Part shown: positions 43,057 to 60,469 of the stretch, piece by piece
Layout of the letters: the number at the start of each line of letters is the position of its first letter
Position numbering within the stretch: the stretch's first letter is position 1
Source of the DNA: Dehalococcoidia bacterium
GTDB lineage: Bacteria; Chloroflexota; Dehalococcoidia; Lucifugimonadales; Australimonadaceae
Direction: 5' to 3'
Assembly: GCA_034422595.1 (NCBI GenBank)
Contig: DAOUJO010000007.1
Coordinates: 212,040-276,039, forward strand
Length of the DNA stretch: 64,000 bases
Made by a program: the position numbers and the translations under genes
The notes under the pieces: model-generated
What the model saw: the letters and a program-made list of their open reading frames with translations, nothing else
Database searches by the model: none
What the model was told of the DNA's origin: nothing

Positions 43057-44751
43057 TCAGATGCTGACCGCGGCTTCGACCTCTTCCCTGCTCATGCCGT
43101 ACACGTCGAGCGCCGTCTCCACGGAGATGTAGCCGTTGCGGAGGTCGGATGCGACGCGCTTGCGCTCGCGCTCCTTCGGGTCGCCAACACCCGCCGCGGA
43201 TGCCGTTTCCATGCGCACGACATCGCCCGGAGCCATGGGAACGTTGGAGATGAGGCCGGTGTAGGCCTTCTCCGTGTCGGTCCCCGGGTTCATCACGACG
43301 CGGCCCGGCCTGCCGTTGCCACCGCCGTTCACGCCGCGCGCCGGAGCGAGCGTCCTCGGTGTACCGCCCGCGTACTGCGCCTGCGAGCGGACGCGGTACT
43401 CGCGCCGGAGCGCGAGGCCCCCCCGGTACTTCCCTGCCCCGCCGGTGTCCGGCACGAGGCAGAACTGCTCCATATCCACGTCGAACTCGGACTCGATGAT
43501 CTCGACGCCCGTGTACTTCGCGCCGCCGGTCCAGGAGTGCGCGGTGCCCGTGTAGCCGTCGCCGCCGTCGTATGCGCCGTTGCCGGAGACGATGATCTCG
43601 TACTGCACGTACCGCTTCGCCGCGGGGCCGCTCGTGCCCAGCACCACCATGCCGGAGACGCTGTTGTGCGCAACTGCGGGGTTGCCCGAGACCTTGCTCA
43701 GCACCTCGAACACCACGTCCTCCACGACGGGCATCGTCATCGAGTAGAAGCCCACGGGCGCGGGGAACGTCGGGCAGATGACGCTGCCCTCCCGGAACCG
43801 GCACTCGATGGCGCGCGCGAGGCCGTAGTTATTGGGCATGTCGGAGCCCATCATCGCTATCGCCGCGTAGTTCACCATGCCGCGCACGAACGGCGGACGG
43901 GCGTTCACCGGCCCCAGCGACTGATCGCCCGAGCCGCTGAAGTCCATGACAAGCCTGTCGCCCTCCTTGATGGCCGCGACGTGGATCCGGATCGTCTCGG
44001 TGGGGTTGGCAACATCGTCGATGAACGCTTCGACCTCCACCGTGCCGTCCGGCCACTGTTCGATGGCCTGGCGGGCGCGCACCTCGGTGCGGTCCCCGAT
44101 GCCCTTGAACGCGTCCAGCACGGCTTCCTTGCCGTAGGTTTCCACCGTGTGGCCGAGGCGCCGGACGCCGATGCTCCAGAGCGCGCCCGCCTGCGCCTCC
44201 AGGTCCCCCAGCACGAGTTCCGGCGTGCGCGTGTTGGAACGCAGGAACTGTACGACCTCCTTGTGCAACACGCGCTGCCGCATGAACTGCACCGGCAGTA
44301 TCGAGAGTCCCTCGCCGAACAGGTCCCGCGCTATCGCGTTGCGCGAGCCGGGCGATTGCCCGCCGATGTCCACCTTGTGGCCCATGCTGGCGCAGAATGC
44401 GATGACTTCATCTCCGGCGAAAACGGGCATGACAACGACCATGTCGCTCGGATGGGGGCACCCGGAATGGTACGGGTGGTTCGTGAGGAAGCAGTCTCCC
44501 TCTCGCATCTCCTCGACGTCGTAGAACTCCAGCACGCCGCGCACGCAGTCCGGGTATGCGCCGAGATGTGTCGGCAGCGGCGAATGCTGGCCGACAACGT
44601 TGCCGTAGCGGTCGGTGATGCCGGCGGAGAAATCGTGGGACTCGCGGATGATGGTGGAATAGCCGGTGCGGAGGACGGCGGCCTGCATCTCGCGAACGAT
44701 GCCGTCCAGCCGGGCTCGTATGACTTCCTGCGTTATGACGTCCGTCGCCAT
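43057..44751 (-). CDS. hyuB: Hydantoinase B/oxoprolinase/acetone-carboxylase-alpha family protein (paralogue 1)
   Basis: ATG 44751 after GGGAGGGA. DVITQEVIRARLDGIVREMQAAVLRTGYSTIIRESHDFSAGITD is the canonical HyuB N-terminus. 564 aa. Confidence 0.85.
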   Translation of the reverse strand: MATDVITQEVIRARLDGIVREMQAAVLRTGYSTIIRESHDFSAGITDRYGNVVGQHSPLPTHLGAYPDCVRGVLEFYDVEEMREGDCFLTNHPYHSGCPHPSDMVVVMPVFAGDEVIAFCASMGHKVDIGGQSPGSRNAIARDLFGEGLSILPVQFMRQRVLHKEVVQFLRSNTRTPELVLGDLEAQAGALWSIGVRRLGHTVETYGKEAVLDAFKGIGDRTEVRARQAIEQWPDGTVEVEAFIDDVANPTETIRIHVAAIKEGDRLVMDFSGSGDQSLGPVNARPPFVRGMVNYAAIAMMGSDMPNNYGLARAIECRFREGSVICPTFPAPVGFYSMTMPVVEDVVFEVLSKVSGNPAVAHNSVSGMVVLGTSGPAAKRYVQYEIIVSGNGAYDGGDGYTGTAHSWTGGAKYTGVEIIESEFDVDMEQFCLVPDTGGAGKYRGGLALRREYRVRSQAQYAGGTPRTLAPARGVNGGGNGRPGRVVMNPGTDTEKAYTGLISNVPMAPGDVVRMETASAAGVGDPKERERKRVASDLRNGYISVETALDVYGMSREEVEAAVSI

Positions 44752-44845
44752 CAACCATCCCTCCCGCCTGGGTGGTGATAACCTATGCGCGCCACGAGGG
44801 GCTGTCAAACCTGCGCAGCGCTTTGCGCGAACGCCTGGGCGCCCC

Positions 44846-44851
44846 TATAGT
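44846..44851 (+). promoter_or_regulatory. Candidate -10 box (TATAGT) for hyuA
   Basis: Lies in the 136-bp divergent hyuB1/hyuA spacer, 36 nt before the ATG and upstream of the AAGGAAGG RBS. Confidence 0.3.
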
Positions 44852-44887
44852 TCGCGTTCGATCCCACGCAAGGAAGGCTGGTTCCAG

Positions 44888-46936
44888 ATGAAGACGGTTG
44901 CAGTAGACACGGGCGGAACGTTCACCGACATGGTCGTGCTCGAGCACGAGTCCGGCGAAGTCGACGTGCTGAAGGTACCGTCCACGCCCCAGGACCCCGG
45001 ACGCGCAATCATCGACGGCCTGCGCGAGCTGCTCGACGCCAACCTCGAGGCCGACGAAGTGGCTTCGTTCACCCACGGAACGACAGTCGGTACGAACATC
45101 CTCGTGCAGGACAAGGGCGCGCGCGTGGGGCTGCTCATCACGGACGGCTTCAGCGGCGTGAACGACGTCTGGCACATCCCGCGGTTCGGCAGCGACCTGT
45201 CCGACATCTACGTGGAGAAGAACCCGCCCGTGGAGCCGTGGCTGCGCGAGGAGATCGTGGAGCGCGTCGACTACAAGGGCAACGTGAAGAAGCCGCTGGA
45301 CGTGGAGCAGGCGCGTGAAGCCGTGAAGCGTCTCAAGAAGAAGGGCGCGGAGTCCGTTGCCGTCGTGCTGCTGTTCTCGTTCCTGAACCCGGAGCACGAG
45401 CGGGCGCTCGGCGAGATGATCAAGGAGGAGTTCCCGGACGGTTCGGTCTCGCTCTCGTCGGAGATACTGCCGCAGATACGCGAGTTCCCCCGCCTGAGCA
45501 CCACAGTCGCGAACGCGCGGCTTGCTCCCGCGATGATCGACTACCTCGGCAAGCTGGCCGCCGGGCTTCGCGGCCTCGGCATCACCACCGAGCAGCTCTA
45601 CATCATGCAGAGCAACGGGGGCGTCGCGAAGATCACGAGCGTCATCCCCATCACCACCCTGCTCTCCGGCCCGTGCGCCGGTTCCGAGGCGGGGATGCAG
45701 ATAGCCGATTCCGCCGGGTTCTCCAACATGGTGTCGTTCGACATGGGCGGCACGAGCAGCGACATCGCGCTCGGCGAGAACGGCTCCGTGCTCGAGCAGA
45801 CGTCCGTGCTCGTCGGCGACTGGGAGATAGCGGCGCCGATGCTGATGATCAACACCATCGGCGCGGGCGGCGGCACCATCGCGTGGATAGACGGCGGCGG
45901 CGCGCTGCAGGTCGGCCCACACAGCGCGGGCGCGGACCCCGGCCCGGTTGCCTACGACAAGGGAGGCACCCAGCCGACCGTGACCGACGCCAACCTGCTG
46001 CTCGGCTTCCTGCACCCGGAGTACCTGCTGGGCGGCAAGGTGAAGACGAACAGGCAGAAGGCGTACGAGGCCGTCGCGGACATGGGCAGGCAACTCGGCA
46101 TCGAGCCGATGGCCACTGCCGAGGGCATCATCCGCATCATCAACGCGAAGATGGAGGAGGGCATCCGCGAAGTCTCGACCGAGCGCGGGTACGACCTCCG
46201 CAACTTCGTGCTCGTCGCGTTCGGCGGCGCGGGGCCGGTACATGCCGGACGACTCGCCGCCGACCTCGGCATGAGCAAGGTTGTCGTCCCGCCGATGCCG
46301 GGCGTGAGCTCGGCGCTCGGCCTCATCATGGCGGACCCGCGCCGCGACTTCGTGCGCTCCCGCCTGACCGACCTCGAACAGCTGGGCGCGGGCGAGCTGG
46401 GCTCCATCTTCGGGGCGTTGCGCGACCACGCGATCGGTGAGTTCAAAGCGGACGGCTTCGACGAGGACTCCATCGGCTGTTCGTTCTCGGTGGACCTGCG
46501 GTACCAGGGCCAGGGCTACGAGCTGAACGTCCCCGCGGGGGACGACGTCAACCTGAGCGCGCAGGCCATCGCCGACATACGCGAGCGGTTCGACCAGGCG
46601 CACGAGCAGCTGTTCGGTCACAGCGCAAAGACGGAGCCGGTGGAGGCGGTGAACTACCGCGTCCGCGCGACGGTGCGCGTGCCGAAGTTCTCCATGAAGC
46701 GCCATGAACGCGCCACGGGGTCGGCGGACAGCGCGAAGATAGGCGAGCGCGAGGTGTACTTCGACCGTGCGTCCGGAATGACGCCGACGCCGGTGTTCGA
46801 GCGCACGCTGCTCGCGCCCGGCCACGAGGTCGGAGGCCCGGCCATCGTCGAGCAATTGGACAGCACGACGGTCGTCTACCCCGGCCAGCAAGCGCTCGTG
46901 GACGACTACGGCAACCTCATCATCTCCATCGGCTGA
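44888..46936 (+). CDS. hyuA: Hydantoinase A/oxoprolinase family protein (ATP-binding subunit)
   Basis: ATG 44888. VAVDTGGTFTDMVVL actin-like ATPase motif, with a second motif SFDMGGTSSDIAL. 682 aa. Confidence 0.85.
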   Translation: MKTVAVDTGGTFTDMVVLEHESGEVDVLKVPSTPQDPGRAIIDGLRELLDANLEADEVASFTHGTTVGTNILVQDKGARVGLLITDGFSGVNDVWHIPRFGSDLSDIYVEKNPPVEPWLREEIVERVDYKGNVKKPLDVEQAREAVKRLKKKGAESVAVVLLFSFLNPEHERALGEMIKEEFPDGSVSLSSEILPQIREFPRLSTTVANARLAPAMIDYLGKLAAGLRGLGITTEQLYIMQSNGGVAKITSVIPITTLLSGPCAGSEAGMQIADSAGFSNMVSFDMGGTSSDIALGENGSVLEQTSVLVGDWEIAAPMLMINTIGAGGGTIAWIDGGGALQVGPHSAGADPGPVAYDKGGTQPTVTDANLLLGFLHPEYLLGGKVKTNRQKAYEAVADMGRQLGIEPMATAEGIIRIINAKMEEGIREVSTERGYDLRNFVLVAFGGAGPVHAGRLAADLGMSKVVVPPMPGVSSALGLIMADPRRDFVRSRLTDLEQLGAGELGSIFGALRDHAIGEFKADGFDEDSIGCSFSVDLRYQGQGYELNVPAGDDVNLSAQAIADIRERFDQAHEQLFGHSAKTEPVEAVNYRVRATVRVPKFSMKRHERATGSADSAKIGEREVYFDRASGMTPTPVFERTLLAPGHEVGGPAIVEQLDSTTVVYPGQQALVDDYGNLIISIG

Positions 46937-47123: not shown

Positions 47124-48431
47124 ATGCACTTCGGACCCATTCGCGCAAGAATCCTGCTGGCGTTCGCCGCACTGATGAGCATCTCGCTCATCGCTTCGGC
47201 GTGCGGCGCAGACCCAACGGCAACGCCCGTGCCGCCCACCGCGACGCCGACACCGGCTCCGGCCATGGACGATAAGCCGGATCCGACGCCGACGCCCGTG
47301 CCCCCGACGCCAACCCCGGAGCCTGAGCCGCAGGTGCTCAAGCTCGGTTTCACCGTCCCGCAGTCCGGCTCCTACGCCCACTGGGGACGGCTCGTCTCCG
47401 CCATGCAGTGCGCCATCGACGAAGTACACGCGAGCGGCGACCTCGGTTCCACGACTATCGAACTCCTCCCCGAGGACTCGAAGGCAGACCAGGCGGAGGG
47501 CGTCTCCGGACTCCGCAAGCTGGCCACAGTGAACGACGCTCCGGTCGTCATGACCATCTTCACCGGCATCGGGCTTGCCCAGAAGCCGGTCGCTTCCGAA
47601 CTCGAAGTTGTGCTGTTCAGCTCCGGCATCCAGAACCCCATGTTCGCTTACGACAGCCCGTGGGTGTTCCGCAACGCGCTGAACACGACGCTCAACGCTG
47701 ACGCGCTGGTCCGCTGGCTGGACGACTACGCGGGCGGCTCCGGTGAGGACCTCAGCGGCCTGCGCTACGCCTACATCAAGGAGGAGGGCAACGACTCGAT
47801 CGACCTGCAGGTTGACCGGCTGCACGTGCTCTCCGACGCGCTGGGCTTCGAGATCGTCGCCGAGGAGACGTTCCAGAAGGATGACGTCTCGTTCGACACG
47901 CAGATCACGAAGATGAAGGCCGCCGAACCGGACGTCGTTCAGCTGATGTCGCTCGGCAAGGAGATGGGCCTCATCATCAACACGATGGCCCAGCAAGGGC
48001 TCGAGCCCAAGTACACCATCTCCGGCGGCGGAGCCGAGGGCAACACGGAGCTGATCGACGTGGCCGGCGCAGCCGCGAACGGCCTGGTCTACTCCGCCCC
48101 GGGCCAGTTCGACAAGGAAGCCGACGCGCGCGCTCCGCGCTTCATCGACTGCTACGCGGGCAAGGAAGGCAACGACCCCGACACCTACGCCACGCACTTC
48201 TACGACGGCACGCTCGTCATCGCCGAGGCGCTGAAGATGGGCGCAGACGCGACCTCTTCCGAGTCGATGCGCGACCACCTCGCAGAAGTCCGGGAGATCA
48301 CCGGCCTCGCCGGACTCTGGGTCTTCGACGAGGGCGGCGACGCCTGGGCGCCGCCGGGTATCGGCCATGTCGTGAACGGCGAGTTCGTCAACCTCGTCCC
48401 GCAGATCGAGCCGTACCGGGACATCCAGTAG
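47124..48431 (+). CDS. Lipoprotein, ABC transporter substrate-binding protein (Leu/Ile/Val-binding, type I PBP fold) with a PT-rich linker
   Basis: Lipobox LIASACG, then the linker PTATPVPPTATPTPAPAMDDKPDPTPTPVPPTPTPEPEP. It is followed by livHMGF-type genes. GGGGGAGG RBS. Confidence 0.8.
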   Translation: MHFGPIRARILLAFAALMSISLIASACGADPTATPVPPTATPTPAPAMDDKPDPTPTPVPPTPTPEPEPQVLKLGFTVPQSGSYAHWGRLVSAMQCAIDEVHASGDLGSTTIELLPEDSKADQAEGVSGLRKLATVNDAPVVMTIFTGIGLAQKPVASELEVVLFSSGIQNPMFAYDSPWVFRNALNTTLNADALVRWLDDYAGGSGEDLSGLRYAYIKEEGNDSIDLQVDRLHVLSDALGFEIVAEETFQKDDVSFDTQITKMKAAEPDVVQLMSLGKEMGLIINTMAQQGLEPKYTISGGGAEGNTELIDVAGAAANGLVYSAPGQFDKEADARAPRFIDCYAGKEGNDPDTYATHFYDGTLVIAEALKMGADATSSESMRDHLAEVREITGLAGLWVFDEGGDAWAPPGIGHVVNGEFVNLVPQIEPYRDIQ

Positions 48432-48446
48432 GATCGATTGACACGA

Positions 48447-48486: not shown

Positions 48487-49398
48487 GTGGAAACCTTCAT
48501 CCAGATAGGCATCAACGCCCTCTCGCTCGGGGCCATCTATGCCCTGCTGTCGCTGGGGTTCGCGGTCATCTACAACACCGTGCGCATCTTCCACGTGCTG
48601 CACGGCGCGGCGTTCCTCATCGCGGGCTACGCCACGTGGTGGCTGGCACAGGAGCAGGGGCTGCCCATCTTCTTCGCGGCCTCCATCGCAGTCATCCTCG
48701 CGGGCGCATCGGGCATCTTCATGGAGCTCGCCGTCTACCGGCGGTTGCGGGTACGCGGCGCGGGCTTCCTCGTCTCGTTCCTGGGTTCGCTCGCGGCGCT
48801 CTTCTTCTTCGAGGGCCTGCTGCTCACCATCGCCCGCACGACTGCCCGGCTGCCCCGGCCCGGAGGGCCCCTGCCGACGTTCAACCTGCAGATCGAGGCG
48901 CTCGACATCGACCTCTTCATCAAGTGGCACGCGGTCAACACCATCGTGCTGGTCGCCATCCTCGTGGTCGCCGTGACGCTTTTCTTCCGCTACACGAAGT
49001 GGGGACGCATGATCCGCGCCATCGCCTCGAACCCAGACCTTGCGGTCGCGGTGGGCATCAACGCCTCGCAGGTCTACCTGATGGTGTTCGTGCTCGGCTC
49101 GACGCTCGCCGGCATCGGCGGTGTCATGCAGACGTACGAGGGCGGCGTCATCCCGAACGTCGGCATCCGGCTGGCCATCACGGCGGCGGGCGGAGTCATC
49201 ATCGGCGGCATCGGGAGCATGCCCGGCGCGGTTGTGGGCGGACTGGCGCTTGGACTGGCGCAGACCATCGCGAGCTATTACTTCGGCGGCAACTGGGCGA
49301 TACCCGCGGGGTTCATCCTGTTGCTGCTCGTCATCCTGTTCCGGCCCTACGGACTTCTGGGAACGCGGGAACACCGCGAACTGCGGAGGCTGCTGTGA
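48487..49398 (+). CDS. livH: Branched-chain amino acid-type ABC transporter permease (LivH family)
   Basis: 303 aa polytopic protein. GTG start. Sits in SBP-permease-permease-ATPase-ATPase order. Confidence 0.8.
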   Translation: METFIQIGINALSLGAIYALLSLGFAVIYNTVRIFHVLHGAAFLIAGYATWWLAQEQGLPIFFAASIAVILAGASGIFMELAVYRRLRVRGAGFLVSFLGSLAALFFFEGLLLTIARTTARLPRPGGPLPTFNLQIEALDIDLFIKWHAVNTIVLVAILVVAVTLFFRYTKWGRMIRAIASNPDLAVAVGINASQVYLMVFVLGSTLAGIGGVMQTYEGGVIPNVGIRLAITAAGGVIIGGIGSMPGAVVGGLALGLAQTIASYYFGGNWAIPAGFILLLLVILFRPYGLLGTREHRELRRLL

Positions 49399-50660
49399 CC
49401 ACCGACGCACAGGAACCGCAAGCGCTCAGCGACGGAGAGGTCGACGAGGAGCAGGCCGGGGCTGTCGAGCCACTGGAAGGCTGGCGCGCCGTCGTAACTC
49501 CGAACCGGACGCTCGTCGCCTTCGGCGCATTGATGCTGCTGGCGCTCATCCCATTCGGCACGGGGCACGTCACCGGGGCGTTCGTAACAACGGTCCACGC
49601 CGTCGGCAGCGTCGCGGTGCTGATCGTCGCAGCGCTGCAACAGAAGTACGGCCTGGGGGCGTTCGCGCTCTTCATCCTGGTCCTCTCTCTGCTGTGGCGC
49701 TTCGAGCTGGGGCTGAGCGACGAATACATGGCGCACCTCATCGTCGTGGCCAGCGTCTTCTCCATACTGGCATCCTCGCTGAACATGTCGGTCGGCTACA
49801 CGGGACTGATGAGCCTGTCGCACGCCGGGTTCATGGGCATCGGCGCGTACGCGTTCGCCGTCCTGACGACGGAGACGCTCAACCCGCCGCCCGGCGCAGA
49901 GGTGTTCAGCCTCCCCTACTGGCCGTCAATCATTGTCGCTGGCCTCGTCGCTTCGGTCGTGGCCTTCATCGTCTCGCCGATCCTGCGGTTGCGCGGTCAC
50001 TTCTTCGTGCTGGCGACCGTAACGGTGATGCTGAGCCTCTCGCAGGTGATACTCGCGTGGCGTTGGATGACGAACGGCTCGCTCGCCATCCGCGAGGTGC
50101 CGCGCCCGGTGATCTTCGGCTACGCGTTCGACACCGCCGACAAGTTCCTGCTGTTCAGCATCCCCATCGCCATCATCTGCATCATCATCCTCTGGCGGCT
50201 AGTGGAATCTCCCTACGGGCGCGTGCTGACGACGATCCGCGCGAACCCGGCGGTCGCAGAGAGCATCGGCAAGAACGTCGGCTTCGTGCGGCTGCGCGTC
50301 TACGTCATCACCGCGTTCTTCGCGGGGGTGGCCGGCGCGGTGTACGTCTCGTATGTCACGGTCGCGGCGCACTCGCAGTACCTCGTCGAGTTCAGCACGT
50401 TCCTGCTCATCATGGTGGTGCTGGGCGGCTCCGGTCGGTGGCTCGGCGCGGTGCTGGGCGCGCTCGCCTATGTGACGGTCTCGGAAGTGGTGCGCTACGT
50501 GCCGGAGATCACCGAGTGGTTCCACTCCTACGTCTCGTTCTTCCCGGTCATCCCCGGCGAGAAGACGGGCGGCATCACCACGATGACCTGGGGCGCGCTG
50601 CTCTTCTTCCTCATGCTGTTCAGGCCGCAGGGCATCATCGGCAGGTACCGGCTGGAGTAA
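49395..50660 (+). CDS. livM: Branched-chain amino acid-type ABC transporter permease (LivM family)
   Basis: GTG 49395 overlaps the livH stop (GTGA). An acidic N-terminal tail is followed by about 9 TM helices. The upstream part of ORF 48438..50660 is shadow. Confidence 0.75.
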   Translation: MTTDAQEPQALSDGEVDEEQAGAVEPLEGWRAVVTPNRTLVAFGALMLLALIPFGTGHVTGAFVTTVHAVGSVAVLIVAALQQKYGLGAFALFILVLSLLWRFELGLSDEYMAHLIVVASVFSILASSLNMSVGYTGLMSLSHAGFMGIGAYAFAVLTTETLNPPPGAEVFSLPYWPSIIVAGLVASVVAFIVSPILRLRGHFFVLATVTVMLSLSQVILAWRWMTNGSLAIREVPRPVIFGYAFDTADKFLLFSIPIAIICIIILWRLVESPYGRVLTTIRANPAVAESIGKNVGFVRLRVYVITAFFAGVAGAVYVSYVTVAAHSQYLVEFSTFLLIMVVLGGSGRWLGAVLGALAYVTVSEVVRYVPEITEWFHSYVSFFPVIPGEKTGGITTMTWGALLFFLMLFRPQGIIGRYRLE

Positions 50661-52184: not shown

Positions 52185-53885
52185 ATGGCCACCACCGACG
52201 TCATCACCCAGGAAGTTATCCGCGCCAGGCTGGACGGCATCGTCCGCGAGATGCAGGCCGCCGTGCTCCGCACCGGCTTCTCCACCATCATCCGCGAGTC
52301 CCACGACTTTTCCGCCGGCATCACGGACATCTCCGGCGCTGTTGTCGGCCAGTACTCTCCCCTGCCCACGCACCTCGGCGCGTACCCGGACTGCGTGCAG
52401 GGCGTCCTCGATTTCTACCCCCTCGACGAGATGGAGGAGGGCGACTGCTACCTGGCCAACCACCCCTACTACTCCGGTTGCCCCCACCCGAACGACATGG
52501 TCGTGGTGCTGCCGGTGTTCCACGAGGGCGAGGTCATCGCCTTCTGCGCCAGCATGGGGCACAAGGCCGACATCGGCGGGCAGTCGCCCGGCTCGCGGAA
52601 CACCATCGCGCGGGACGTGTTCGGCGACGGCCTGCAGATCATGCCCGTGCTCTTCCAGCGCGGCGGCGAGATGAACAAGGAGGTCGCGCAGTTCCTGCGG
52701 GCGAACAGCCGGACGCCAGAGCTGGTCATCGGCGACCTCGGCGCGCAGGCAGGCGCGCTGCGGAGCATCGGCGCGGCGCGGTTGAAGACGCTCGCGAACG
52801 AGTACGGAGGAGAGACGCTCACCGCCGCGTTCGGCGACATCATCGAGCGCGTCGAGGCGCGCGTCCGAGGTCACTTCGCCGAGTGGGCCGACGGCATCGC
52901 CGAGGCGGAAGCGCTCGTCGACGACATCGTCGACCCATCGACGACGATCCGGCTGCACGTCGCGGCCATCAAGCAGGGTAACCGGCTCACGCTCGACTTC
53001 TCCGGCTCCGGCGACCAGAGCGCCGGGCCCATCAACGTGCGACCACCCTTCATACGCGGGATGGCCTACTTCGCCGCCATCGCCATGATGGACCCGAGCG
53101 TCCCCAACAACGGCGGGCTCGCGCGGGCGGTCGAGTGCCGCTTTCGTGAGGGGAGCGTCATGGACCCGCGCTTCCCCGGCCCGGTGGGGTTCTACTCGAC
53201 GACGATGGCCGCGATAGAGGACGTGGTATTCGAAGCGATGAGCAAGGTCGCCGGACGCCCCGCCGTCGCACACAACGCCGCTTCCTCGATGGTCGTGCTC
53301 GGCACGTCCGGCGAGGGGCGCGCCCGCTACGTGCAGTACGAGCTGCTCCGCTCCGGCAACGGCGCGCACACCGGCGGCGACGGTTACACCGGCACCGGTC
53401 ATTCGTGGGCGGGCGGCGCGAAGCTGACGAGCGTGGAGATACTCGAGTCCGAGTTCGACGTGGAGCTGCAGCGGTTCGCCCTCATCCCTGACTCCGGCGG
53501 GCCGGGAGCGAACCGGGGCGGGCACGGCATGCGGCGGGAGTACAAGGTGCTCAAGGAGAGTAAGTACTCCGGCGGCACCGCGCGCCAGAACGACCCTCCC
53601 CACGGCGTGGAGGGCGGACTGCCTGGACGCCCCGGCGTCATCACCATCAACCCGGATACTGAGGACGCCGTCGAGTACCGCGGACTCGTCTCCAACCTGC
53701 TGCTCAACGAGGGCGACGTTATCCGCATCGACACCGGCAGTTCAGGCGGCGCCGGCGACCCCAAGGAACGCGACCCCGCGCTCGCGGCGTCGGACCTGCG
53801 CAACGGCTACGTCACGCCGGAGCAGTCCGCGAGTGTCTACGGCCTCGACGCGGCGTCCATCGAGCAGGCGCTATCGTTGGAGTAA
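52185..53885 (+). CDS. hyuB: Hydantoinase B/oxoprolinase family protein (paralogue 2)
   Basis: 566 aa. The N-terminus MATTDVITQEVIRARLDGIVREMQAAVLRTGFSTIIRESHDFSAGITD is almost identical to paralogues 1 and 3. Confidence 0.85.
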   Translation: MATTDVITQEVIRARLDGIVREMQAAVLRTGFSTIIRESHDFSAGITDISGAVVGQYSPLPTHLGAYPDCVQGVLDFYPLDEMEEGDCYLANHPYYSGCPHPNDMVVVLPVFHEGEVIAFCASMGHKADIGGQSPGSRNTIARDVFGDGLQIMPVLFQRGGEMNKEVAQFLRANSRTPELVIGDLGAQAGALRSIGAARLKTLANEYGGETLTAAFGDIIERVEARVRGHFAEWADGIAEAEALVDDIVDPSTTIRLHVAAIKQGNRLTLDFSGSGDQSAGPINVRPPFIRGMAYFAAIAMMDPSVPNNGGLARAVECRFREGSVMDPRFPGPVGFYSTTMAAIEDVVFEAMSKVAGRPAVAHNAASSMVVLGTSGEGRARYVQYELLRSGNGAHTGGDGYTGTGHSWAGGAKLTSVEILESEFDVELQRFALIPDSGGPGANRGGHGMRREYKVLKESKYSGGTARQNDPPHGVEGGLPGRPGVITINPDTEDAVEYRGLVSNLLLNEGDVIRIDTGSSGGAGDPKERDPALAASDLRNGYVTPEQSASVYGLDAASIEQALSLE

Positions 53886-53936: not shown

Positions 53937-55181
53937 ATGCTTTCGCAGCAGGACAACGAACGGTACACGCGCGTCGGCAAGGGCACGCCGATGGGCGAGC
54001 TGATGCGCCGCTACTGGCACCCCATCGCCGGAACGTCCCAGATGATGGGCGAAGACCCCACGATGGCAGTCCGGCTCCTCGGCGAGGACCTCGTTCTCTA
54101 CCGGACGCCGGACAACGAGTTCGGCCTCATCGAGCAGCGCTGCGCCCATCGCGGCGTCGACATGCTCTACGGCATCCCGGAGAAGGAGGGCATCCGCTGC
54201 TGCTACCACGGCTGGCTGTACGACTTCAACGGCCAGTGCCTGGAGCAGCCCTCCGAGCCGACGGGCAGCACGTACAAGGAGAAGATCAGGCTGACCGCCT
54301 ACCCGGTGCAGGAGCTGCACGGGCTCATCTGGGCGTACCTCGGACCGGAGCCCGCGCCCCTGCTCCCCCGATGGGACGTCTTCGCGTGGGAGGAGGACGT
54401 CACCCGGCGCATCCAGGCGACCACGCTCCCCTGCAACTGGCTGCAGTGCGTCGACAATGCGCTCGACCCGGCGCACTTCGAGCACCTGCACGGCTACTAC
54501 GGCACCTGGATCAACGCGCAGAAGGGACAGGGCGAGGAGTGGACGAACCGCCTGCCGCAACGGGCGAAGCACCACCTGAAACTGGGGTTCGAGCGGTTCG
54601 AGCACGGCGTCATCAAGCGACGGGTCACCGCAGGCATCGACGAAACGCACCCCGACTGGCAGACCGGCCACCCGATCGTCTTCCCGTATACGCTGAAGAT
54701 CGGCGGTCTGGAAGGCGCGCATCGATTCCTGCTCCGCGTCCCCATCGACGACGAGCACACGTGGTACGTGCGCTACACGACGACCGTGCATCCAGCCGGC
54801 GCCAACGTGCCGGTGCAGGCGTTCGGCTCCATCCCGGTCGAGGGGCAGCCGCTCTACGACGAGAAGGGGCGACTGGTCAGCACGGACGTGCCGGGGCAGG
54901 ACCAGATGACGTGGGTCGCGCAGGGCCCCATCGTGGACCGGACGCGCGAGAACCTCGGGGTGACCGACGCGGGCATCATCCTCTACCGGAAGGTGATGGA
55001 GGAGAACCTCCGCATCGTCGAGGATGGCGGCGACCCGATGAACACGTTCCGCGACCCCGCGCAGAACGAGTGCATCCTGCTGCCGAACGAGGCAGCCCCG
55101 TTCCCCGGCTTCGACGAGCCGGGTGGGCCGTGGTACGGCGTCATGCCGCGCAAGCCGGACGTGGAGGTATCGCTCCTCTGA
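53937..55181 (+). CDS. Rieske [2Fe-2S] oxygenase alpha subunit (paralogue 3)
   Basis: Rieske motif CAHRGVDMLYGIPEKEGIRCCYHGWLY. N-terminal GTPMGELMRRYWHP. GAGGAGGA RBS. Confidence 0.85.
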   Translation: MLSQQDNERYTRVGKGTPMGELMRRYWHPIAGTSQMMGEDPTMAVRLLGEDLVLYRTPDNEFGLIEQRCAHRGVDMLYGIPEKEGIRCCYHGWLYDFNGQCLEQPSEPTGSTYKEKIRLTAYPVQELHGLIWAYLGPEPAPLLPRWDVFAWEEDVTRRIQATTLPCNWLQCVDNALDPAHFEHLHGYYGTWINAQKGQGEEWTNRLPQRAKHHLKLGFERFEHGVIKRRVTAGIDETHPDWQTGHPIVFPYTLKIGGLEGAHRFLLRVPIDDEHTWYVRYTTTVHPAGANVPVQAFGSIPVEGQPLYDEKGRLVSTDVPGQDQMTWVAQGPIVDRTRENLGVTDAGIILYRKVMEENLRIVEDGGDPMNTFRDPAQNECILLPNEAAPFPGFDEPGGPWYGVMPRKPDVEVSLL

Positions 55182-55187
55182 CCTCCG

Positions 55188-56018
55188 TCAGCCGGGGCCG
55201 CGCGCGAGCTGCCTCCAGGCGGCGGGCGCCGACGAGCGTTGGAGATTTTCCTCGACGCTGAGGGCCGTGTCCCAGTCGTTGGCGATGACGCGCATGCCGT
55301 TGAAGCCGTCCGACTCCCCGGACGCGAGCCAGACGGCGGGCGGGCCCATGACCTCCGGCTGCACGAGCGCGGAGAAGTCGCGGCTGGGGTCGCGGTCGAC
55401 GAACATGGTGTTCGTGCCGCCGCCGGGGAGCAGCGCGTTCGTCGTTACCCCGGTGCCTTCCAATTCAGGCGCCATCGCCGACACCATCGCCTCGTGGGTC
55501 GCCTTGCTCGGGCCGTAGGGGATGTTGCGCGTCATGGTGTCGAGGCTGGTCGTGACGCCGATGACGCGGCCCCAGCCACGCTCAAGCATGCCCGGCACCG
55601 CCGCGCGCGCCATCAGGAACGGGCCGGTCGAGTTGACCGCGATCATCCGCTCCCAGACCTCCACCGGCTGCTCCCAGAAGTGGAGCGGTCTGTCCGACGG
55701 CGGGAGGAGCGAGCGATGGTGTACCCCGGCCAGGTTCACGAGGACGTCCAGGCTCCCGTGCGTATCGACCGTGCTCTGCACGACGCGCTGCGCCTCGTCC
55801 CACCGGCTGGTGTCGGCCACGAGCGTGGAGACCGCAGCGTCGCCTGCTATCTCGCGGGCCTCGTTCGCGGTCTGCTGGAGCCAATCGGCCTTGATGTCCA
55901 GCATCGCAACCCGTGCCCCGGCGCGGAGCATCGCGAGCGCAATCACCCGCCCCATGCCGATGGGGCTGCCCGCGCCCGTCACGAGCGCCACCTTCCCGTC
56001 GAGCCTTACGTCAGCCAT
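55188..56018 (-). CDS. Short-chain dehydrogenase/reductase (SDR)
   Basis: VALVTGAGSPIGMG cofactor motif and YGPSK catalytic motif. Confidence 0.85.
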   Translation of the reverse strand: MADVRLDGKVALVTGAGSPIGMGRVIALAMLRAGARVAMLDIKADWLQQTANEAREIAGDAAVSTLVADTSRWDEAQRVVQSTVDTHGSLDVLVNLAGVHHRSLLPPSDRPLHFWEQPVEVWERMIAVNSTGPFLMARAAVPGMLERGWGRVIGVTTSLDTMTRNIPYGPSKATHEAMVSAMAPELEGTGVTTNALLPGGGTNTMFVDRDPSRDFSALVQPEVMGPPAVWLASGESDGFNGMRVIANDWDTALSVEENLQRSSAPAAWRQLARGPG

Positions 56019-56056
56019 GAGCGCGCCCTCCTTGTCCGCGACTGGAACCCTGATGA

Positions 56057-56620
56057 TTACCCTGCGGACAGCACGCCGCAGGCGACGCGCCCCCCTGCCC
56101 CACCGATGGGCTGCGTAATGTGGTCGTCGCGGTTCTCGTGGACGACGATAGCCGAGCCGTCGTCGTCCATGAGCATGTCCGCGTCCACGAGCGTCGTGAA
56201 CATCTCCGCCTGCGCCGTCCCGTCCGCGGCGACGTAGATGTTCGGCAGATCGCCGTTATCCGGTCCCTCGGGATTGAGCAGCCCGTGCTGCTTGTCGTGC
56301 ACGTTGATGTGCCCACCGGACGCCTTGAAGTCCGGGCTGCACGAACCGATCGTGTGGATGTGGATGCCGTGGAAACCCGGTTCGAGCCCTTCCAGCATGA
56401 CTGTCACCAGGAAGCCGCGCGTCGGCGACTGCTCCATGACGACCGTGCCGATGGCGTCGCCGTCCACGTTCTGCATCCGAGCGGTCAGGCGCGCGTCGCC
56501 CCCGCTGCTCTCCGATCCCACGGAAACCGAGAGATTGCACGCGGCAGACGCGAGCGCGATAAGCGATATAATCAGAACGATCCCTGTCGTTACGGATACC
56601 AAGCGGTTTCTGGGCCCCAT
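56057..56620 (-). CDS. sodC: Cu/Zn superoxide dismutase-family protein with an N-terminal membrane anchor/signal
   Basis: GFHGIHIHTIGSC copper-site motif and C-terminal GGAGGRVACGVL. Hydrophobic N-terminus IVLIISLIALASAAC. Confidence 0.8.
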   Translation of the reverse strand: MGPRNRLVSVTTGIVLIISLIALASAACNLSVSVGSESSGGDARLTARMQNVDGDAIGTVVMEQSPTRGFLVTVMLEGLEPGFHGIHIHTIGSCSPDFKASGGHINVHDKQHGLLNPEGPDNGDLPNIYVAADGTAQAEMFTTLVDADMLMDDDGSAIVVHENRDDHITQPIGGAGGRVACGVLSAG

Positions 56621-56682
56621 GCGTACTCCTAAGTAATGACGATGCTCAAAGCATAACAGCGCATCTGAATCCCCGTGAAAAA

Positions 56683-56807
56683 CCGCTCATCTGCGCTCAT
56701 TCCGCGCTCATCCACCTCTGTTTCCGCGCCCTGCTCAACCTCCCCAAATCGCGCGAAACCGCTCATTACCGCCTCATTCCCGCGCGAAACCGCCGATAGC
56801 CGCTCAC
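56683..56807 (-). repeat. Second, inverted copy of the phased ATGAGCGG-motif array
   Basis: CTCA cores at 56686, 56696, 56707, 56734, 56762, 56773 and 56803 on the + strand. The 11-mer ATCCACCTCTG at 56710..56720 is the reverse complement of CAGAGGTGGAT at 31989. Confidence 0.65.
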
Positions 56808-57046
56808 GCTATTGCACTCCTGTGACCACAACCTGCGGCGCGGCGTTCCGCCGGACAACCGCCGTAGCTGCAACATTCTGTAACACTTCGCAACATCCCT
56901 CTCCCGCGACCCGGCCCCGCGCCCGGGCAGCCCCACGCCGACGCCACGCCGCCGAAGACAGCGTACGCGGCCAGGGCGCGACCGCGAAAGAGGCGCGTGT
57001 CACCGATCGCAGCAAAGGGAGGGATGTGGAAGTGCGGCGATTGCGG

Positions 57047-57052
57047 TAGCAT
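57047..57052 (+). promoter_or_regulatory. Candidate -10 box TAGCAT 7 nt before the hyuB3 ATG (leaderless-type promoter)
   Basis: TTGCGGTAGCATCCGGCGCATG. It is homologous to the block before hyuB2. Confidence 0.35.
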
Positions 57053-57059
57053 CCGGCGC

Positions 57060-58763
57060 ATGAGCACAGCAGACGTCATCACCCAGGAAGTCATCCGCGC
57101 CCGGTTGGACGGCATCGTGCGCGAGATGCAGGCCGCCGTGCTCCGCACCGGCTTCTCCACCATCATCCGCGAATCGCACGACTTCTCCGCCGGCATCACC
57201 GACCGCGACGGCAACGTCGTCGGCCAGTACTCACCGCTCCCTCCGCACCTCGGCGCGTACCCGGAGTGCGTCAAGGGCGTCCTCCAGTTCTACTCGTTCG
57301 AGGAGATGGAGGAGGGCGACTGCTTCCTCATCAACCACCCGTACTACTCCGGTTGCCCGCACCCCAACGACATGGTCGTCGTGCTGCCGGTCTTCCACGG
57401 GGGGCGCGTCGTCGCGTTCTGCGCCAGCATGGGGCACAAGAGCGACATCGGCGGGCAGTCGCCCGGAAGCCGGAACACCCTAGCGCGGGACGTATTCGGC
57501 GAGGGGCTGCAGATCATGCCGGTCAAGTTCCTCAGCAGGCGCGAACCGCTGTACGAGACGCACCAGATGCTGCGCGCGAACAGCCGCACGCCCGAGCTCG
57601 TCATCGGCGACCTCGGCGCGCAGGCGGGGGCGCTGTGGAGCATCGGCTCGACGCGGCTGAAGAACCTCATGGACGAGTATGGCCAGGAGACCGTGGTCGA
57701 CGCGTTCGAGCAGATCGGCCTCCGCACGGAGGCCCGCGTCCGCCAGGAGATACGGCAGTGGCCGGACGGCGTCTACGAGGCAGAGGCGTTCACCGACGAC
57801 ATCGTCGACCCCAACCGCAAGCTGCGCCTGCACGTCTCCGCTATCAAGCAGGGCGACTCGCTCACCCTCGACTTCTCCGGAACCGACGACCAGAGCCCCG
57901 GCCCCATCAACGTGCGCCCCCCGTTCATCCACGGCATGGCCTACTACGCCGTCATCGCGATGATCGACCCTGGCGTGCCGAACAACTTCGGGCTCGCGCG
58001 GGCGGTCGAGTGCCGCTTCCGCGAGGGGACGGTGCTGAACCCGACGTTCCCGACGCCGGTGGGCTTCTACTCGATGACGCTCTCCACCGTCGAGGACATC
58101 ATCTTCGAGGCGCTGAGCCAGGCCGCGGGACGCCCCGCCGTCGCGCACAACGCCAGCAGCGGCATGGTGGTCATGGGCACGGTCGGCGGCGGACGGCGCT
58201 ACGTGCAGTACGAGCTGATGATGTCCGGCAACGGCGCACACCACGGCGGCGACGGCTGGACCGGCACCGGCCACTCCTGGGGAGGCGGCAGCAAGATCAC
58301 GAGCGCGGAGATCCTCGAGTCCGAGTTCGACGTCGAGATGCAGCGCTTCGAACTCGTGCGGGACACCGGCGGGCCGGGCGAATACCGGGGCGGGCTCGCG
58401 ATGCGGCGCGAGTACCTCGTCAAGCAGCCGAGCCGCTACGCCGGAGGCAGCCCGCGCAACCTCGCACCCGCGCACGGCGTCGTGGGCGGCATGGACGGCG
58501 TCGGCGGCGCAGTGACGGTCAACCCCGGCGCGGACGACGAGCGGCGCTACGTCGGCATCATCTCGAACGTCATGGTCGAGCAGGGCGACGTCGTGCGCGT
58601 CGAGACCGGCAGCGCGGGCGGCGCGGGCGATCCCGTCGAGCGCGATCGCGAGCGTGTCGTGAGCGACCTGCGCAACGGCTACATCAGCACGGAGGCCGCC
58701 GTCCGGATCTACGGACTGGACGAGGAGGCCATCAGCGAGGCCCTCGCGGTTCAGGCGGAATGA
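57060..58763 (+). CDS. hyuB: Hydantoinase B/oxoprolinase family protein (paralogue 3)
   Basis: ATG 57060 was chosen by alignment with the paralogues (MSTADVITQEVIRARLDGIVREMQ...). 567 aa. Confidence 0.85.
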   Translation: MSTADVITQEVIRARLDGIVREMQAAVLRTGFSTIIRESHDFSAGITDRDGNVVGQYSPLPPHLGAYPECVKGVLQFYSFEEMEEGDCFLINHPYYSGCPHPNDMVVVLPVFHGGRVVAFCASMGHKSDIGGQSPGSRNTLARDVFGEGLQIMPVKFLSRREPLYETHQMLRANSRTPELVIGDLGAQAGALWSIGSTRLKNLMDEYGQETVVDAFEQIGLRTEARVRQEIRQWPDGVYEAEAFTDDIVDPNRKLRLHVSAIKQGDSLTLDFSGTDDQSPGPINVRPPFIHGMAYYAVIAMIDPGVPNNFGLARAVECRFREGTVLNPTFPTPVGFYSMTLSTVEDIIFEALSQAAGRPAVAHNASSGMVVMGTVGGGRRYVQYELMMSGNGAHHGGDGWTGTGHSWGGGSKITSAEILESEFDVEMQRFELVRDTGGPGEYRGGLAMRREYLVKQPSRYAGGSPRNLAPAHGVVGGMDGVGGAVTVNPGADDERRYVGIISNVMVEQGDVVRVETGSAGGAGDPVERDRERVVSDLRNGYISTEAAVRIYGLDEEAISEALAVQAE

Positions 58764-60469
58764 GCGCGACGGCGCCGGACGTCATCACGCAGGAGGTGGT
58801 CCGCGCGCGGGTGGACGGCATCATGCGCGAGATGCAGGCCGCCGTCATGCGCACCGGCTTCTCCACCATCATCCGCGAGTCCCACGACTTCTCCGCAGGC
58901 ATCACCGACCGCGACGGCAACACCGTCGGCCAGCACTCGGCGCTCCTCCAGCACCGCGGCGCGTACCCGGACTGCGTCGCGGGTGTCCTCCGTCACTACC
59001 CGCGCGAGGCGATGGAGGACGGCGACTGCTACCTCATCTCCGACCCGTACTCGTCCGGCTGCCCACACCCCAACGACATGGTCGTCGTGACGCCCGTCGT
59101 CGTGGACGGCGAGGTCGTCGCGTTCTGCTCCTCGATGGGCCACAAGAGCGACATCGGCGGGCAGTCGCCCGGCAGCCGGAACGCGATAGCGCGCGACGTG
59201 TTCGGCGAGGGGCTGAACATCGCGCCCGTGCGCTTCCACCGCCGCCGCGAGCCCGTGAAGGAGGTCATGCAGTTCCTCACGGCCAACAGCCGCACGCCGG
59301 AGCTGGTCATCGGCGACCTGAACGCGCAGGCTGGCGCGATGTACACCATCGGCGCGGGACGGTTGAAGGAGCTGTTCGCGCAGTTCGGCACGGAGACGGT
59401 CACCGGCGCGTTCGCGGACACCGCGCGGCGCACGGAGATGCGCGTGCGGGCCGCCATCGCCGAGTGGCCGGATGGCGAAGCCGAGGCCGAGGGCTACGTG
59501 GACGACATCGTGGACAAGAGCAAGGCGGTGCGCATCCACGTCCGCATCGAGAAGTCGGGCGACGGCCTGCTCGCCGACTTCTCCGGCTCCGACGACCAGA
59601 GCCCCGGCCCCATCAACGTGCGCCCGCCGTTCATCTACGGCATGGCACAGTTCGCCCTCATCGCGATGATCGACCCGGACCTGTACGGCAACGCGGGGCT
59701 CGCGCGGACGATACGGTTCCGCTTCCGCCCCGGCAGCGTCGTCAACCCCACCTACCCTGCGCCAGTCGGCTTCTACTCGATGACCATCCCGGTCGTCGAG
59801 GACGTGCTGTTCGAGGCGATGAGCAAGGTGGCGGGGCGTCCGCTCGTGGCGCACAACGCGCCGCCGAACCTCGTCGTCATCGGCAACGTCTCCGGCCGGG
59901 GAAAGCGCTACGTGCAGTACGAGTTGCTGCGCTCCGGCAACGGCGCGTACGACGGCGGCGACGGCTGGACGGGCACCGCGCACTCGGCGAGCGGCGGCTC
60001 CAAGTTCACGAGCGTCGAGATAATCGAGTCCGAGTTCGACGCGGAGGTCGAGCGGTTCGAGATCATCCCGGACTCCGGCGGCGCGGGGAAGCACCGGGGC
60101 GGCAACGGCCTGCTGCGCCGCTACCGCATCCACTCGGAAAGCCGGTTCGCGGGCGGCAACCCGCGCAACCTGCGCCCTCCGCACGGGCTCGCGGGCGCGG
60201 GCGACGGCGCGCCGGGCGGCGTCACCGTCAACCCCGGCGCCGAGAACGAGGAGACGCACCTGGGCCTGATCTCCAACGTACCGCTGCCCGAGGACTGCAT
60301 CATCGAGGCGCGCACGAGCGGCGCGGGCGGCGTCGGCCCGCCGAAGGAGCGCGACCGCCGCAAGGTGGTCCGCGACCTGCGCAACGGCCTCATCAGCAGG
60401 CAGGCCGCGATAGACGTCTACGGCCTCGACCCGCAGACCGCGGATGCCGCGCTCGTGCCTGGGCTGTAG
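58760..60469 (+). CDS. hyuB: Hydantoinase B/oxoprolinase family protein (paralogue 4)
   Basis: ATG 58760 overlaps the hyuB3 stop (ATGA). MSATAPDVITQEVVRARVDGIMREMQAAVMRTGFSTIIRESHDFSAGITD. 569 aa. The first about 1.5 kb of ORF 57266..60469 is shadow. Confidence 0.85.
   Translation: MSATAPDVITQEVVRARVDGIMREMQAAVMRTGFSTIIRESHDFSAGITDRDGNTVGQHSALLQHRGAYPDCVAGVLRHYPREAMEDGDCYLISDPYSSGCPHPNDMVVVTPVVVDGEVVAFCSSMGHKSDIGGQSPGSRNAIARDVFGEGLNIAPVRFHRRREPVKEVMQFLTANSRTPELVIGDLNAQAGAMYTIGAGRLKELFAQFGTETVTGAFADTARRTEMRVRAAIAEWPDGEAEAEGYVDDIVDKSKAVRIHVRIEKSGDGLLADFSGSDDQSPGPINVRPPFIYGMAQFALIAMIDPDLYGNAGLARTIRFRFRPGSVVNPTYPAPVGFYSMTIPVVEDVLFEAMSKVAGRPLVAHNAPPNLVVIGNVSGRGKRYVQYELLRSGNGAYDGGDGWTGTAHSASGGSKFTSVEIIESEFDAEVERFEIIPDSGGAGKHRGGNGLLRRYRIHSESRFAGGNPRNLRPPHGLAGAGDGAPGGVTVNPGAENEETHLGLISNVPLPEDCIIEARTSGAGGVGPPKERDRRKVVRDLRNGLISRQAAIDVYGLDPQTADAALVPGL

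Follow-up and report, generated by a model that had tools for sequence, protein, structure and literature searches.

How does a locus that encodes a single HyuA subunit make use of four HyuB subunits? The question is raised by a 64,000-nucleotide stretch of DNA from a Dehalococcoidia bacterium of the marine SAR202 type (contig DAOUJO010000007.1; hereafter the window), and it matters since descriptions of the enzyme family have up to now given it an invariable subunit composition, either one A-type subunit per B-type subunit or, in acetophenone carboxylase, two A-type and one B-type. An earlier note on this DNA had offered two readings, namely that one HyuA serves several HyuB modules or that the B-type proteins function without an A subunit. 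The four-to-one count and its conservation are confirmed here; from synteny and conservation we infer that a shared HyuA is more likely than B proteins that act without A. All four hyuB products are full-length Hydantoinase_B proteins (Pfam PF02538, profile positions 1-519 of 519, E 1e-137 to 1e-141) of 564-569 aa, with pairwise identities of 61-70% (tblastn), and HyuA has 682 aa. A tblastn search of the 64 kb window with all five proteins returned four hyuB and one hyuA and no further copies, in agreement with the gene positions and the 136-bp divergent hyuB1/hyuA spacer given in the earlier note (Table 1). As the same genes recur in many independent assemblies, complete chromosomes among them, the imbalance is neither chance nor an assembly artefact.

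Table 1. Features of the hyu locus, numbered from the first letter of the window.
Feature	Position	Strand	Basis and remarks
NAD-dependent epimerase/dehydratase, Zn-ADH, two Amidohydro_2; downstream of hyuB1	38622..43041	-	Pfam; gaps 4-26 bp
hyuB1	43057..44751	-	PF02538, E 4.7e-139; opens minus-strand string, divergent from hyuA
Divergent spacer, 136 bp, hyuB1/hyuA	44752..44887	.	
hyuA, sole Hydantoinase_A gene of the window (ASKHA fold)	44888..46936	+	Pfam Hydant_A_N + Hydantoinase_A + Hydant_A_C (PF05378 + PF01968 + PF19278)
LivK-type periplasmic substrate-binding protein	47124..48431	+	Pfam Peripla_BP_6; kept after hyuA in relatives
LivH/LivM-type permeases (two)	48487-49398, 49395-50660	+	Pfam BPD_transp_2; GC3 and start-codon check
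ABC ATPases (two)	50664-51437, 51424-52134	+	Pfam ABC_tran
hyuB2	52185..53885	+	PF02538; 50 bp 3' of the transporter genes
Rieske/LigXa-like oxygenase, last of the hyuA string	53937..55181	+	Pfam Rieske + LigXa_C
SDR, opposite-strand variable insert	55188-56018	-	NCBIfam
Cu/Zn superoxide dismutase, opposite-strand variable insert	56057-56620	-	NCBIfam
hyuB3, heads the string hyuB3-hyuB4-Amidohydro_2-EamA	57060..58763	+	PF02538, E 1.3e-141
hyuB4	58760..60469	+	PF02538; start overlaps hyuB3 stop by 4 bp
Amidohydro_2	60530-61600	+	Pfam
EamA-type transporter	61643-62563	+	Pfam

Gene order ties part of the HyuB complement closely to hyuA. In the window, hyuA opens a same-strand string that runs through the substrate-binding protein, two permeases and two ABC ATPases to hyuB2 and the Rieske gene, with gaps of at most 187 bp and with hyuB2 as the seventh gene. 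The earlier statement that hyuB2, hyuB3 and hyuB4 have no A partner nearby thus goes too far, and in the relatives L016, L019 and L020 (L numbers denote loci of relatives) hyuA, hyuB2 and hyuB3 are directly adjacent. In the window, hyuB3-hyuB4 form a transcription unit of their own, separated from the hyuA unit by two opposite-strand genes and a 439-bp gap. The hyuA-hyuB2-hyuB3 gaps of L016 measure only 19 and 11 bp, as in a tight operon, and in some relatives hyuB2 occupies the canonical slot straight after hyuA. Such tight operons of hyuA with several hyuB genes count in favour of a shared HyuA, and the separate hyuB3-hyuB4 unit counts against it. Further tight operons of this kind have the order hyuA-transporter-hyuB2-hyuB3-hyuB4 (L001), hyuA-hyuB-transporter-hyuB-hyuB (L078) and hyuB1/hyuA-transporter-hyuB2-hyuB3 (L007); two permeases are found at the equivalent position in relatives too, and the Rieske/LigXa-like gene after hyuB2 is conserved in the closest relatives. 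The site of the SDR and superoxide dismutase genes carries an SDR with E1 alpha and beta instead in the 97%-identical relatives L005 and L006, and no insert in L001. No sigma-70-like consensus was found in the hyuB1/hyuA spacer, and promoter/terminator and Rfam scans returned nothing informative.

The imbalance was followed across 23 orthologous hyuA loci with full flanks, hyuB genes being counted within 10 kb. Exactly one hyuA is present at each (23/23), a constancy that argues for sharing, and the number of hyuB genes varies from none (2 loci) through one (4), two (13, the commonest) and three (3) to four (1), with one to four copies in at least 19/23. The two loci that combine an orthologous hyuA with no hyuB within 10 kb (L015 and L054) count against sharing, and they show that hyuA-hyuB adjacency is not obligatory. 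Taken as a whole, the locus is best explained as a catabolic one of SAR202/Dehalococcoidia bacteria, conserved but plastic.

A more ordinary account, also raised in the earlier note, is that the extra HyuBs pair with HyuA proteins encoded elsewhere, the local imbalance being a mere matter of gene order. The same genomes do contain a second hyuA, ~60% identical to the first, the survey reached hyuA genes down to about 59% identity, and the non-adjacency of hyuA and hyuB in L015 and L054 would fit a distant partner. The second hyuA, however, has its own adjacent hyuB in 27/27 loci that extend past the A gene, with a 1A:1B arrangement in all 23 of those with full flanks, and its partner hyuB falls outside the B1-B4 clade; both observations count for a shared HyuA at the present locus. 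No third hyuA at 59% identity or above was seen on large contigs, and in most of the genomes sampled B1-B4 lie together with the orthologous hyuA. More distant HyuA genes, below 59% identity, could lie elsewhere in the genome, but pairing of the extra HyuBs with such partners is on this evidence distinctly unlikely. Were it so, the locus would represent an ordinary paralogue expansion.

The B subunits themselves have a long separate history. B1-B4 are four old orthogroups that jointly form one clade, with 15 relatives in B1 (82-98% identical), 23 in B2 and 17 in B3. All four groups are under strong purifying selection (dN/dS 0.03-0.17), hyuB4 being the fastest-evolving, and they have been retained across lineages with saturated synonymous sites, with no frameshifts and no lost motifs. 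Although the near-identical predicted pockets of B1-B3 would be expected of redundant or decaying duplicates without distinct roles, this record of retention and constraint makes such a reading highly improbable, and we disfavour it. The dS between the paralogues of the locus is low (0.5-0.8), probably as an effect of extreme GC3 codon bias.

The long identical peptide runs and the more divergent C-terminal half described earlier for the four proteins are real: the proportion of positions shared across the four groups is 77% in the first CapA-contacting-helix segment, the best-conserved part of B1-B4, vs ~35% in the C-terminal domains. Recent gene conversion was considered as a source of the identical runs and rejected, as exact DNA matches between paralogues reach 24-53 nt at their longest, and codon identity, taken over identical residues, stays within 0.57-0.84 throughout; in the absence of long identical DNA tracts, the runs are attributed to selection. 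Conservation of the segment matching this CapB helix was counted in favour of a shared HyuA. As proof of co-evolution with one HyuA it is non-discriminating, because the N-terminal helix evolves slowly in the family at large, CapB and the other paralogue group included, and its conservation thus does not establish a common partner.

The catalytic motifs are intact in both subunit types. The Asp-His-Asp-His metal tetrad, which is essential in CapB (D41, H99, D102, H124; PMC8453981) and corresponds to D40/H100/D103/H125 in hyuB1, is the same in B1-B4 and in each of the 63 orthologues examined, apart from an alignment gap at the D41 column in one B3 sequence. HyuA retains both phosphate-binding motifs, DTGGTFTD and DMGGTSSD, of the ASKHA type (DxGGTxTD and DxGGT; PMC8453981). 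We count the invariant metal ligands for the shared HyuA. A complete metal site in every B, together with the transcription of hyuB3-hyuB4 apart from hyuA in the window, might also suggest that some of the paralogues act as stand-alone metal-dependent hydrolases that dispense with HyuA. That idea we regard as very unlikely: linkage to one hyuA is kept across many genomes, the CapA-interface helix is the best-conserved segment, and the A subunit is needed by all characterised members of the family, with CapA ATP-site mutants losing nearly all activity and the hydrolysis of caprolactam without assistance being strongly disfavoured (PMC8453981).

Predicted pocket residues scarcely differ among B1-B3, so differing substrate specificities are not evident for these three, which counts against a panel of alternative subunits sharing one HyuA. 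The most altered predicted pocket is that of hyuB4, with W replaced by A, S by P, and a Q at the position of CapB residue 62. Residues in the region matching the CapB dimer interface are group-specific. These residues count in favour of a further possibility, in which the B subunits form an obligate heteromeric core, with fixed heterodimers (e.g. B3-B4 or B2-B3) flanked by HyuA in one A2BB' enzyme. A CapB-CapB pair is already the core of the (alpha-beta)2 caprolactamase (PMC8453981), the 4-bp hyuB3/hyuB4 overlap of the window is found in L001 and L005 as well, and hyuB4 always has hyuB3 directly upstream in the loci sampled. Moreover, MAGs of Binatia and Desulfobacterota repeatedly show the order hyuA-hyuB-hyuB', in which the B genes belong to two old clades (3/4 full-flank and 4 truncated loci); this arrangement is independent of that in SAR202. 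Against a fixed core, the B complement differs by genome and may be B1 only, B2 only, B2+B3, B3+B4 or all four: B2 is found without B3 in L022 and L076, B3 without B4 in L007 and L016, and B1 alone in L014. This variation is a better fit to independent modules than to one obligate hetero-complex. The metal site is also complete in every copy, although obligate heteromers often let one decay. An obligate heteromeric core is, taken together, unlikely.

On the shared-HyuA reading, which we give about even probability, a single HyuA works with several alternative HyuBs in an island for uptake and ring opening. HyuA is the ATP-binding, actin-fold subunit, which activates the substrate in characterised relatives, and HyuB is the metal-dependent subunit, which would receive the activated intermediate and open the ring. 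HyuA is accompanied by the Liv-type ABC importer and by HyuBs that number from one to four according to lineage, and several closely related polar cyclic amides, of the lactam, hydantoin or imide type, would be taken up by the one transporter and then ring-opened. All four HyuBs may partner the single HyuA to give alternative (HyuA-HyuBx)2 enzymes, and mixed B-B cores may form too. Put more generally, the chances are evenly balanced that HyuA is a common ATP-dependent activation subunit for an interchangeable panel of HyuBs, possibly including mixed B-B' cores. The gene content and its conservation, the orthology of the B groups, the purifying selection and the intact catalytic motifs are observed; that the enzymes depend on ATP, that HyuA is physically shared and which class of substrate is opened are predictions.

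Among the nearest characterised systems is the caprolactamase CapAB of Pseudomonas jessenii (PDB 6YRA), which hydrolyses lactams with ATP by means of two components. The match of HyuA to CapA has E 2e-122 and that of the HyuBs to CapB E about 1e-56, and the locus resembles CapAB in its Asp-His-Asp-His metal site, its subunit sizes and the absence of a gamma subunit. CapAB, however, is an (alpha-beta)2 enzyme encoded by one A and one B gene, whereas the locus has one A and four B. The locus proteins also score far below equivalog level for caprolactamase (NCBIfam NF050156/NF050157, cut-off 1000 bits; HyuA 559, HyuB 200-240). Where CapB has a hydrophobic pocket and a vicinal Cys410-Cys411 disulfide, the aligned residues of the locus B proteins are E, L, T/P/Q, R, S, E, H, W/A and K, in an alignment that rests on 27-30% identity.

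PDB relatives of HyuA comprise 7HK5 (N-methylhydantoinase), 6YRA_A (CapA), 5L9W_B and 5L9W_b, and the identity of the locus proteins to solved relatives is just 27-30%. The best PDB match is 7HK5, a fused N-methylhydantoinase/5-oxoprolinase of the HyuAB/OplAB type (A, E 3e-133; B, E 8e-69), and close homologues often carry the label "N-methylhydantoinase A/B" in public sources. The B domain of 7HK5 is 26-30% identical to the locus HyuBs, differs from them in most pocket residues and has Gln at the position of the fourth metal ligand, which is His in the locus proteins; a fused enzyme of this type, moreover, has a fixed 1:1 A:B ratio. Hydantoinase-type clusters consist of two genes only, hydAB (Weidenweber et al. 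2017). The locus agrees with the subunit sizes given there for HydAB (beta ~570 aa, alpha ~680 aa, without gamma) but departs from its two-gene order hydA-hydB in having one A and four B genes.

Acetophenone carboxylase, of the same superfamily, is the sole characterised member in which one subunit type occurs as two paralogues. Since these are two HyuA-type subunits (alpha, alpha') beside one HyuB-type (beta), the assertion of the earlier note that all characterised members are encoded pairwise does not apply to this enzyme, and the ratio is the reverse of that at the locus. The idea that acetophenone carboxylase sets a precedent for a pair of B-type subunits beside one A was rejected for the same reason, the PDB, NCBIfam and the paper all pointing the other way. 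It is also a carboxylase with subunits longer than the locus proteins, it requires gamma and epsilon subunits that are absent at the locus, and the locus proteins score far below the ApcA, ApcC and ApcD cut-offs (NCBIfam). Acetone carboxylase AcxABC (PDB 5M45, 5SVB) likewise combines an A-type kinase with a B-type metal subunit, with a channel between them, but the locus B proteins match it only weakly (E 2e-09), and AcxABC differs in its gamma subunit, its 1:1:1 ratio and its long subunits (776 aa vs ~565 aa for the locus B proteins). No acetone-carboxylase gamma domain was present among the locus ORFs scanned (Pfam).

The searchable literature yielded no account of loci with several HyuB genes, nor of hyuAB from SAR202 or Chloroflexota. 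A shared HyuA, if true, would mean that ATP-dependent enzymes that activate lactams, hydantoins and ketones have a further, new way of assembling, and a range of stable cyclic amides could be opened with one ATPase. The family would then be added to those whose paralogue expansions are thought to enable SAR202 to break down recalcitrant dissolved organic matter, and one ATPase would come with a natural set of catalytic subunits, useful in the biocatalytic opening of stable lactams. A functional parallel exists in an unrelated family whose chemistry is different: in actinobacterial acyl-CoA carboxylases a single alpha subunit, the biotin carboxylase, works with several carboxyltransferase beta subunits, i.e. 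one ATP-using subunit is common to paralogous, specificity-setting subunits. The surroundings of the hyu genes are themselves partly conserved, with Amidohydro_2 and then EamA following the last hyuB in the same order in L001, L005, L022 and L076, and with the ADH-epimerase flank kept in L016 and L076.

The single hyuA and four hyuB genes (hyuB1-hyuB4, encoding B1-B4) described in the earlier note were confirmed by Pfam, and tblastn of the five proteins against the entire 64 kb window revealed no further copies of either gene. The gene spacing also bore out the 136-bp spacer between hyuB1 and hyuA, while hyuB3 and hyuB4 overlap by 4 bp. Four gene units were defined from gene spacing together with Pfam and NCBIfam annotation. 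Unit 1 (minus strand, gaps of 4-26 bp) comprises hyuB1, an NAD-dependent epimerase/dehydratase, a Zn-ADH and two Amidohydro_2 genes; unit 2 (plus strand, gaps ≤187 bp) comprises hyuA, a LivK-type binding protein, two permeases, two ABC ATPases, hyuB2 and a Rieske/LigXa-like oxygenase; unit 3 (minus strand) consists of a Cu/Zn superoxide dismutase and an SDR; and unit 4 (plus strand), preceded by a 439-bp gap, contains hyuB3, hyuB4, an Amidohydro_2 gene and an EamA transporter. Unit 2 thus contains both hyuA and hyuB2, and the latter has an A partner close by, contrary to what had been proposed. What lies between hyuB2 and hyuB3 differs among relatives: two that are 97% identical (L005, L006) have a Rieske gene, an SDR and the E1 alpha and beta genes of a 2-oxoacid dehydrogenase there, and a marine MAG (L001) has no insert. 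The repeats found 5' of hyuB3 may form an operator array.

Coordinates of features in the window and of hyuA in two relatives
Feature	Position	Strand	Annotation
hyuB1	43057-44751	minus	full-length Hydantoinase_B (Pfam)
hyuA	44888-46936	plus	three-domain Hydantoinase_A (Pfam)
hyuB2	52185-53885	plus	full-length Hydantoinase_B (Pfam)
hyuB2-hyuB3 slot	53886-57059		Rieske (+), SDR (-), Cu/Zn superoxide dismutase (-)
Intergenic region 5' of hyuB3	56621-57059		three ~23-nt direct repeats, CGCGCGAAACCGCTCATTACCGC-like (starts 56674, 56750, 56781); two imperfect inverted repeats
hyuB3	57060-58763	plus	full-length Hydantoinase_B (Pfam)
hyuB4	58760-60469	plus	full-length Hydantoinase_B (Pfam)
UbiD-type decarboxylases	4445-5905, 11633-13114		
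Further Rieske/LigXa oxygenases	9559-10881, 29149-30555		
Lower-G+C patch	12000-16000		0.59-0.62 vs ~0.67
KAP-family P-loop NTPase	13443-14912		inside lower-G+C patch
Gamma-glutamyltranspeptidase	21946-23661		
ORFs	8260-9528, 30742-31785		no Pfam match
ORF	62576-63451		no Pfam match; overlaps epimerase ORF 62664-63614
hyuA in L015	10001-12049		
hyuA in L054	10001-12043		

The best database protein matches were from Chloroflexota/Dehalococcoidia MAGs, and a HyuA scan of species-representative genomes gave 68 loci. Many of these are located on complete Dehalococcoidia chromosomes of 2.4-3.7 Mb, and two records bear an explicit SAR202 name. Mapping of the A and B genes on all 68 loci defined three groups. 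G1 consists of HyuA proteins orthologous to that of the window (72-98% identical), with exactly one hyuA in every locus. Among the 23 G1 loci that have full flanks, hyuB within 10 kb numbered zero (n=2), one (4), two (13), three (3) or four (1); these counts are lower bounds, since hyuB3-hyuB4 fall outside the flank in window-like loci. G2 is a second HyuA (~60% identical) from the same genomes, found as a simple hyuA-hyuB pair in 23/23 loci with full flanks. The earlier note had allowed that additional HyuA genes might each pair with one of the HyuB proteins; there are indeed two HyuA genes per genome at an identity of at least ~59%, but the second is already paired, which answers this point in part. 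G3 (47-51% identity) occurs in Binatia and Desulfobacterota MAGs, mostly as hyuA-hyuB-hyuB' (L058, L061, L063, L064, L067, L070, L072, L074; e.g. L063:9950-16670), a 1A:2B architecture that exists independently in these other phyla. Both G3 B proteins retain the metal site, and in L063 the two B genes are separated by an NMT1-like binding-protein gene.

The G1 architectures differ from locus to locus: A-transporter-B2-B3-B4-Amidohydro_2-EamA (L001), B1/A-transporter-B2-B3 (L007, L021), B1/A-transporter-B3-B4 (L018), B1/A-transporter-B2 (L022), B/A-transporter-B-EamA with neither B gene placed in an orthogroup (L076), A-B2-B3 as immediate neighbors (L016, L019, L020), A-B-transporter-B-B (L078, L024) and B1/A only (L014). 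On two complete Dehalococcoidia chromosomes (L015, L054), the 10 kb to each side of the orthologous hyuA contain no hyuB; the L054 neighbors include a poly(A) polymerase-like gene. The flanks of L016:6496-16576 match those of window positions 40959-63614 (Zn-ADH-epimerase on one side, epimerase on the other) and enclose only Amidohydro_2, hyuA, hyuB2 and hyuB3, and the 17 kb locus of the window therefore looks like an expanded form of a compact core, at what appears to be a hotspot of gene gain and loss.

The B1-B4 proteins are 61-70% identical to each other. In neighbor-joining trees they form four distinct orthologue groups within one clade, apart from the G2 B proteins and with the longest branches in B4; the B and B' of G3 make up two further clades, both old. 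Comparison with orthologues gave dN/dS values of 0.03-0.17, indicating strong purifying selection on each of the B1-B4 groups. The identical peptide runs noticed earlier are real. Recent gene conversion was ruled out as their source, the longest identical DNA stretches between window paralogues being 24-53 nt and codon identity at identical residues being similar along the entire gene; the runs thus reflect selection.

The nearest solved relatives are a fused N-methylhydantoinase (7HK5) and CapB, the B subunit of caprolactamase; all equivalog-level NCBIfam scores were far below cut-off. Caprolactamase is an (alpha-beta)2 complex with a CapB-CapB core and one CapA bound per CapB, in which a tunnel connects the CapA ATP site with a CapB Zn site (D41, H99, D102, H124) whose mutation abolishes activity (PMC8453981). 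Neither B1-B4 nor their orthologues vary at the four equivalent ligands, and the window HyuA retains both phosphate-binding motifs. In a tentative alignment at 27-30% identity, hydrophobic CapB pocket positions are replaced by polar ones (Glu, Arg, Ser, Glu, His, Trp, Lys), suggesting a substrate that is probably polar or charged; the aligned residues are near-identical in B1-B3, with B4 the most different (Trp to Ala, Ser to Pro, Gln).

In CapB, the first long helix touches CapA (PMC8453981), and across the four B groups conservation is highest in the corresponding segment, with 77% of positions common to all four, as opposed to ~35% in the C-terminal domains, where divergence had already been noted. 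This would fit docking of all four B proteins on one HyuA, albeit weakly, as slow evolution of this helix is a family-wide trait. The 1A:multi-B arrangement is real and conserved, and the interpretation put forward in the earlier note is supported in part. As to its function and assembly, we infer a shared HyuA mainly from genomic linkage, a stronger argument than the helix: linkage of several hyuB to a single hyuA recurs, tight operons included, while the paralogous hyuA of the same genomes is strictly 1:1. A single obligate hetero-complex agrees poorly with a B complement that varies between loci, which favors independent, alternative B modules. A core combining different B proteins is also in play, given that hyuB4 was never found without hyuB3 in G1 loci, that their 4-bp overlap is conserved and that hyuA-hyuB-hyuB' recurs in most G3 loci. 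Between the two readings of the earlier note, linkage thus favors sharing of the A subunit, and B proteins acting independently of A are the least likely, because the hyuA linkage is conserved and, to our knowledge, every characterized family member requires an A subunit.

The locus is best placed among the hydantoinase/oxoprolinase two-component enzymes, as a single A combined with a lineage-specific complement of B paralogues. Hydantoinase-type clusters contain two genes only (hydAB), unlike the one A and four B seen here, and acetone carboxylase has an extra gamma subunit (Weidenweber et al., PMC5214803). Acetophenone carboxylase combines HyuA-like alpha and alpha' with a HyuB-like beta, gamma and epsilon (PMC5214803), assignments with which PDB and NCBIfam matches agree, and this known multi-paralogue case, with two A-type subunits to one B-type, therefore reverses the ratio of the window. 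Full-text literature searches turned up neither a description of loci with several HyuB genes nor one of hyuAB in SAR202. The gene content points to a candidate subunit-sharing or mixed-core architecture.

SAR202 bacteria are known for expanding catabolic enzyme families, and the one-A/multi-B locus fits this pattern. Catabolic paralogues are abundant elsewhere in the window (five Amidohydro_2, three Rieske/LigXa, two UbiD and two CoxG genes), which also encodes Mo-hydroxylases, a GMC oxidoreductase and cupins. Positions 1-38000 hold a dense catabolic set: besides the UbiD, Rieske/LigXa and gamma-glutamyltranspeptidase genes tabulated above, both CoxG genes, genes for large subunits of Mo-hydroxylases and for two class II aldolases, and transporters of the TctA and SSF types are found there. 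The lower-G+C patch with the KAP gene may be a foreign insertion. Two of the three ORFs without a Pfam match have coding-like GC3 (0.88 for 8260-9528), and the one overlapping an epimerase ORF is probably spurious.
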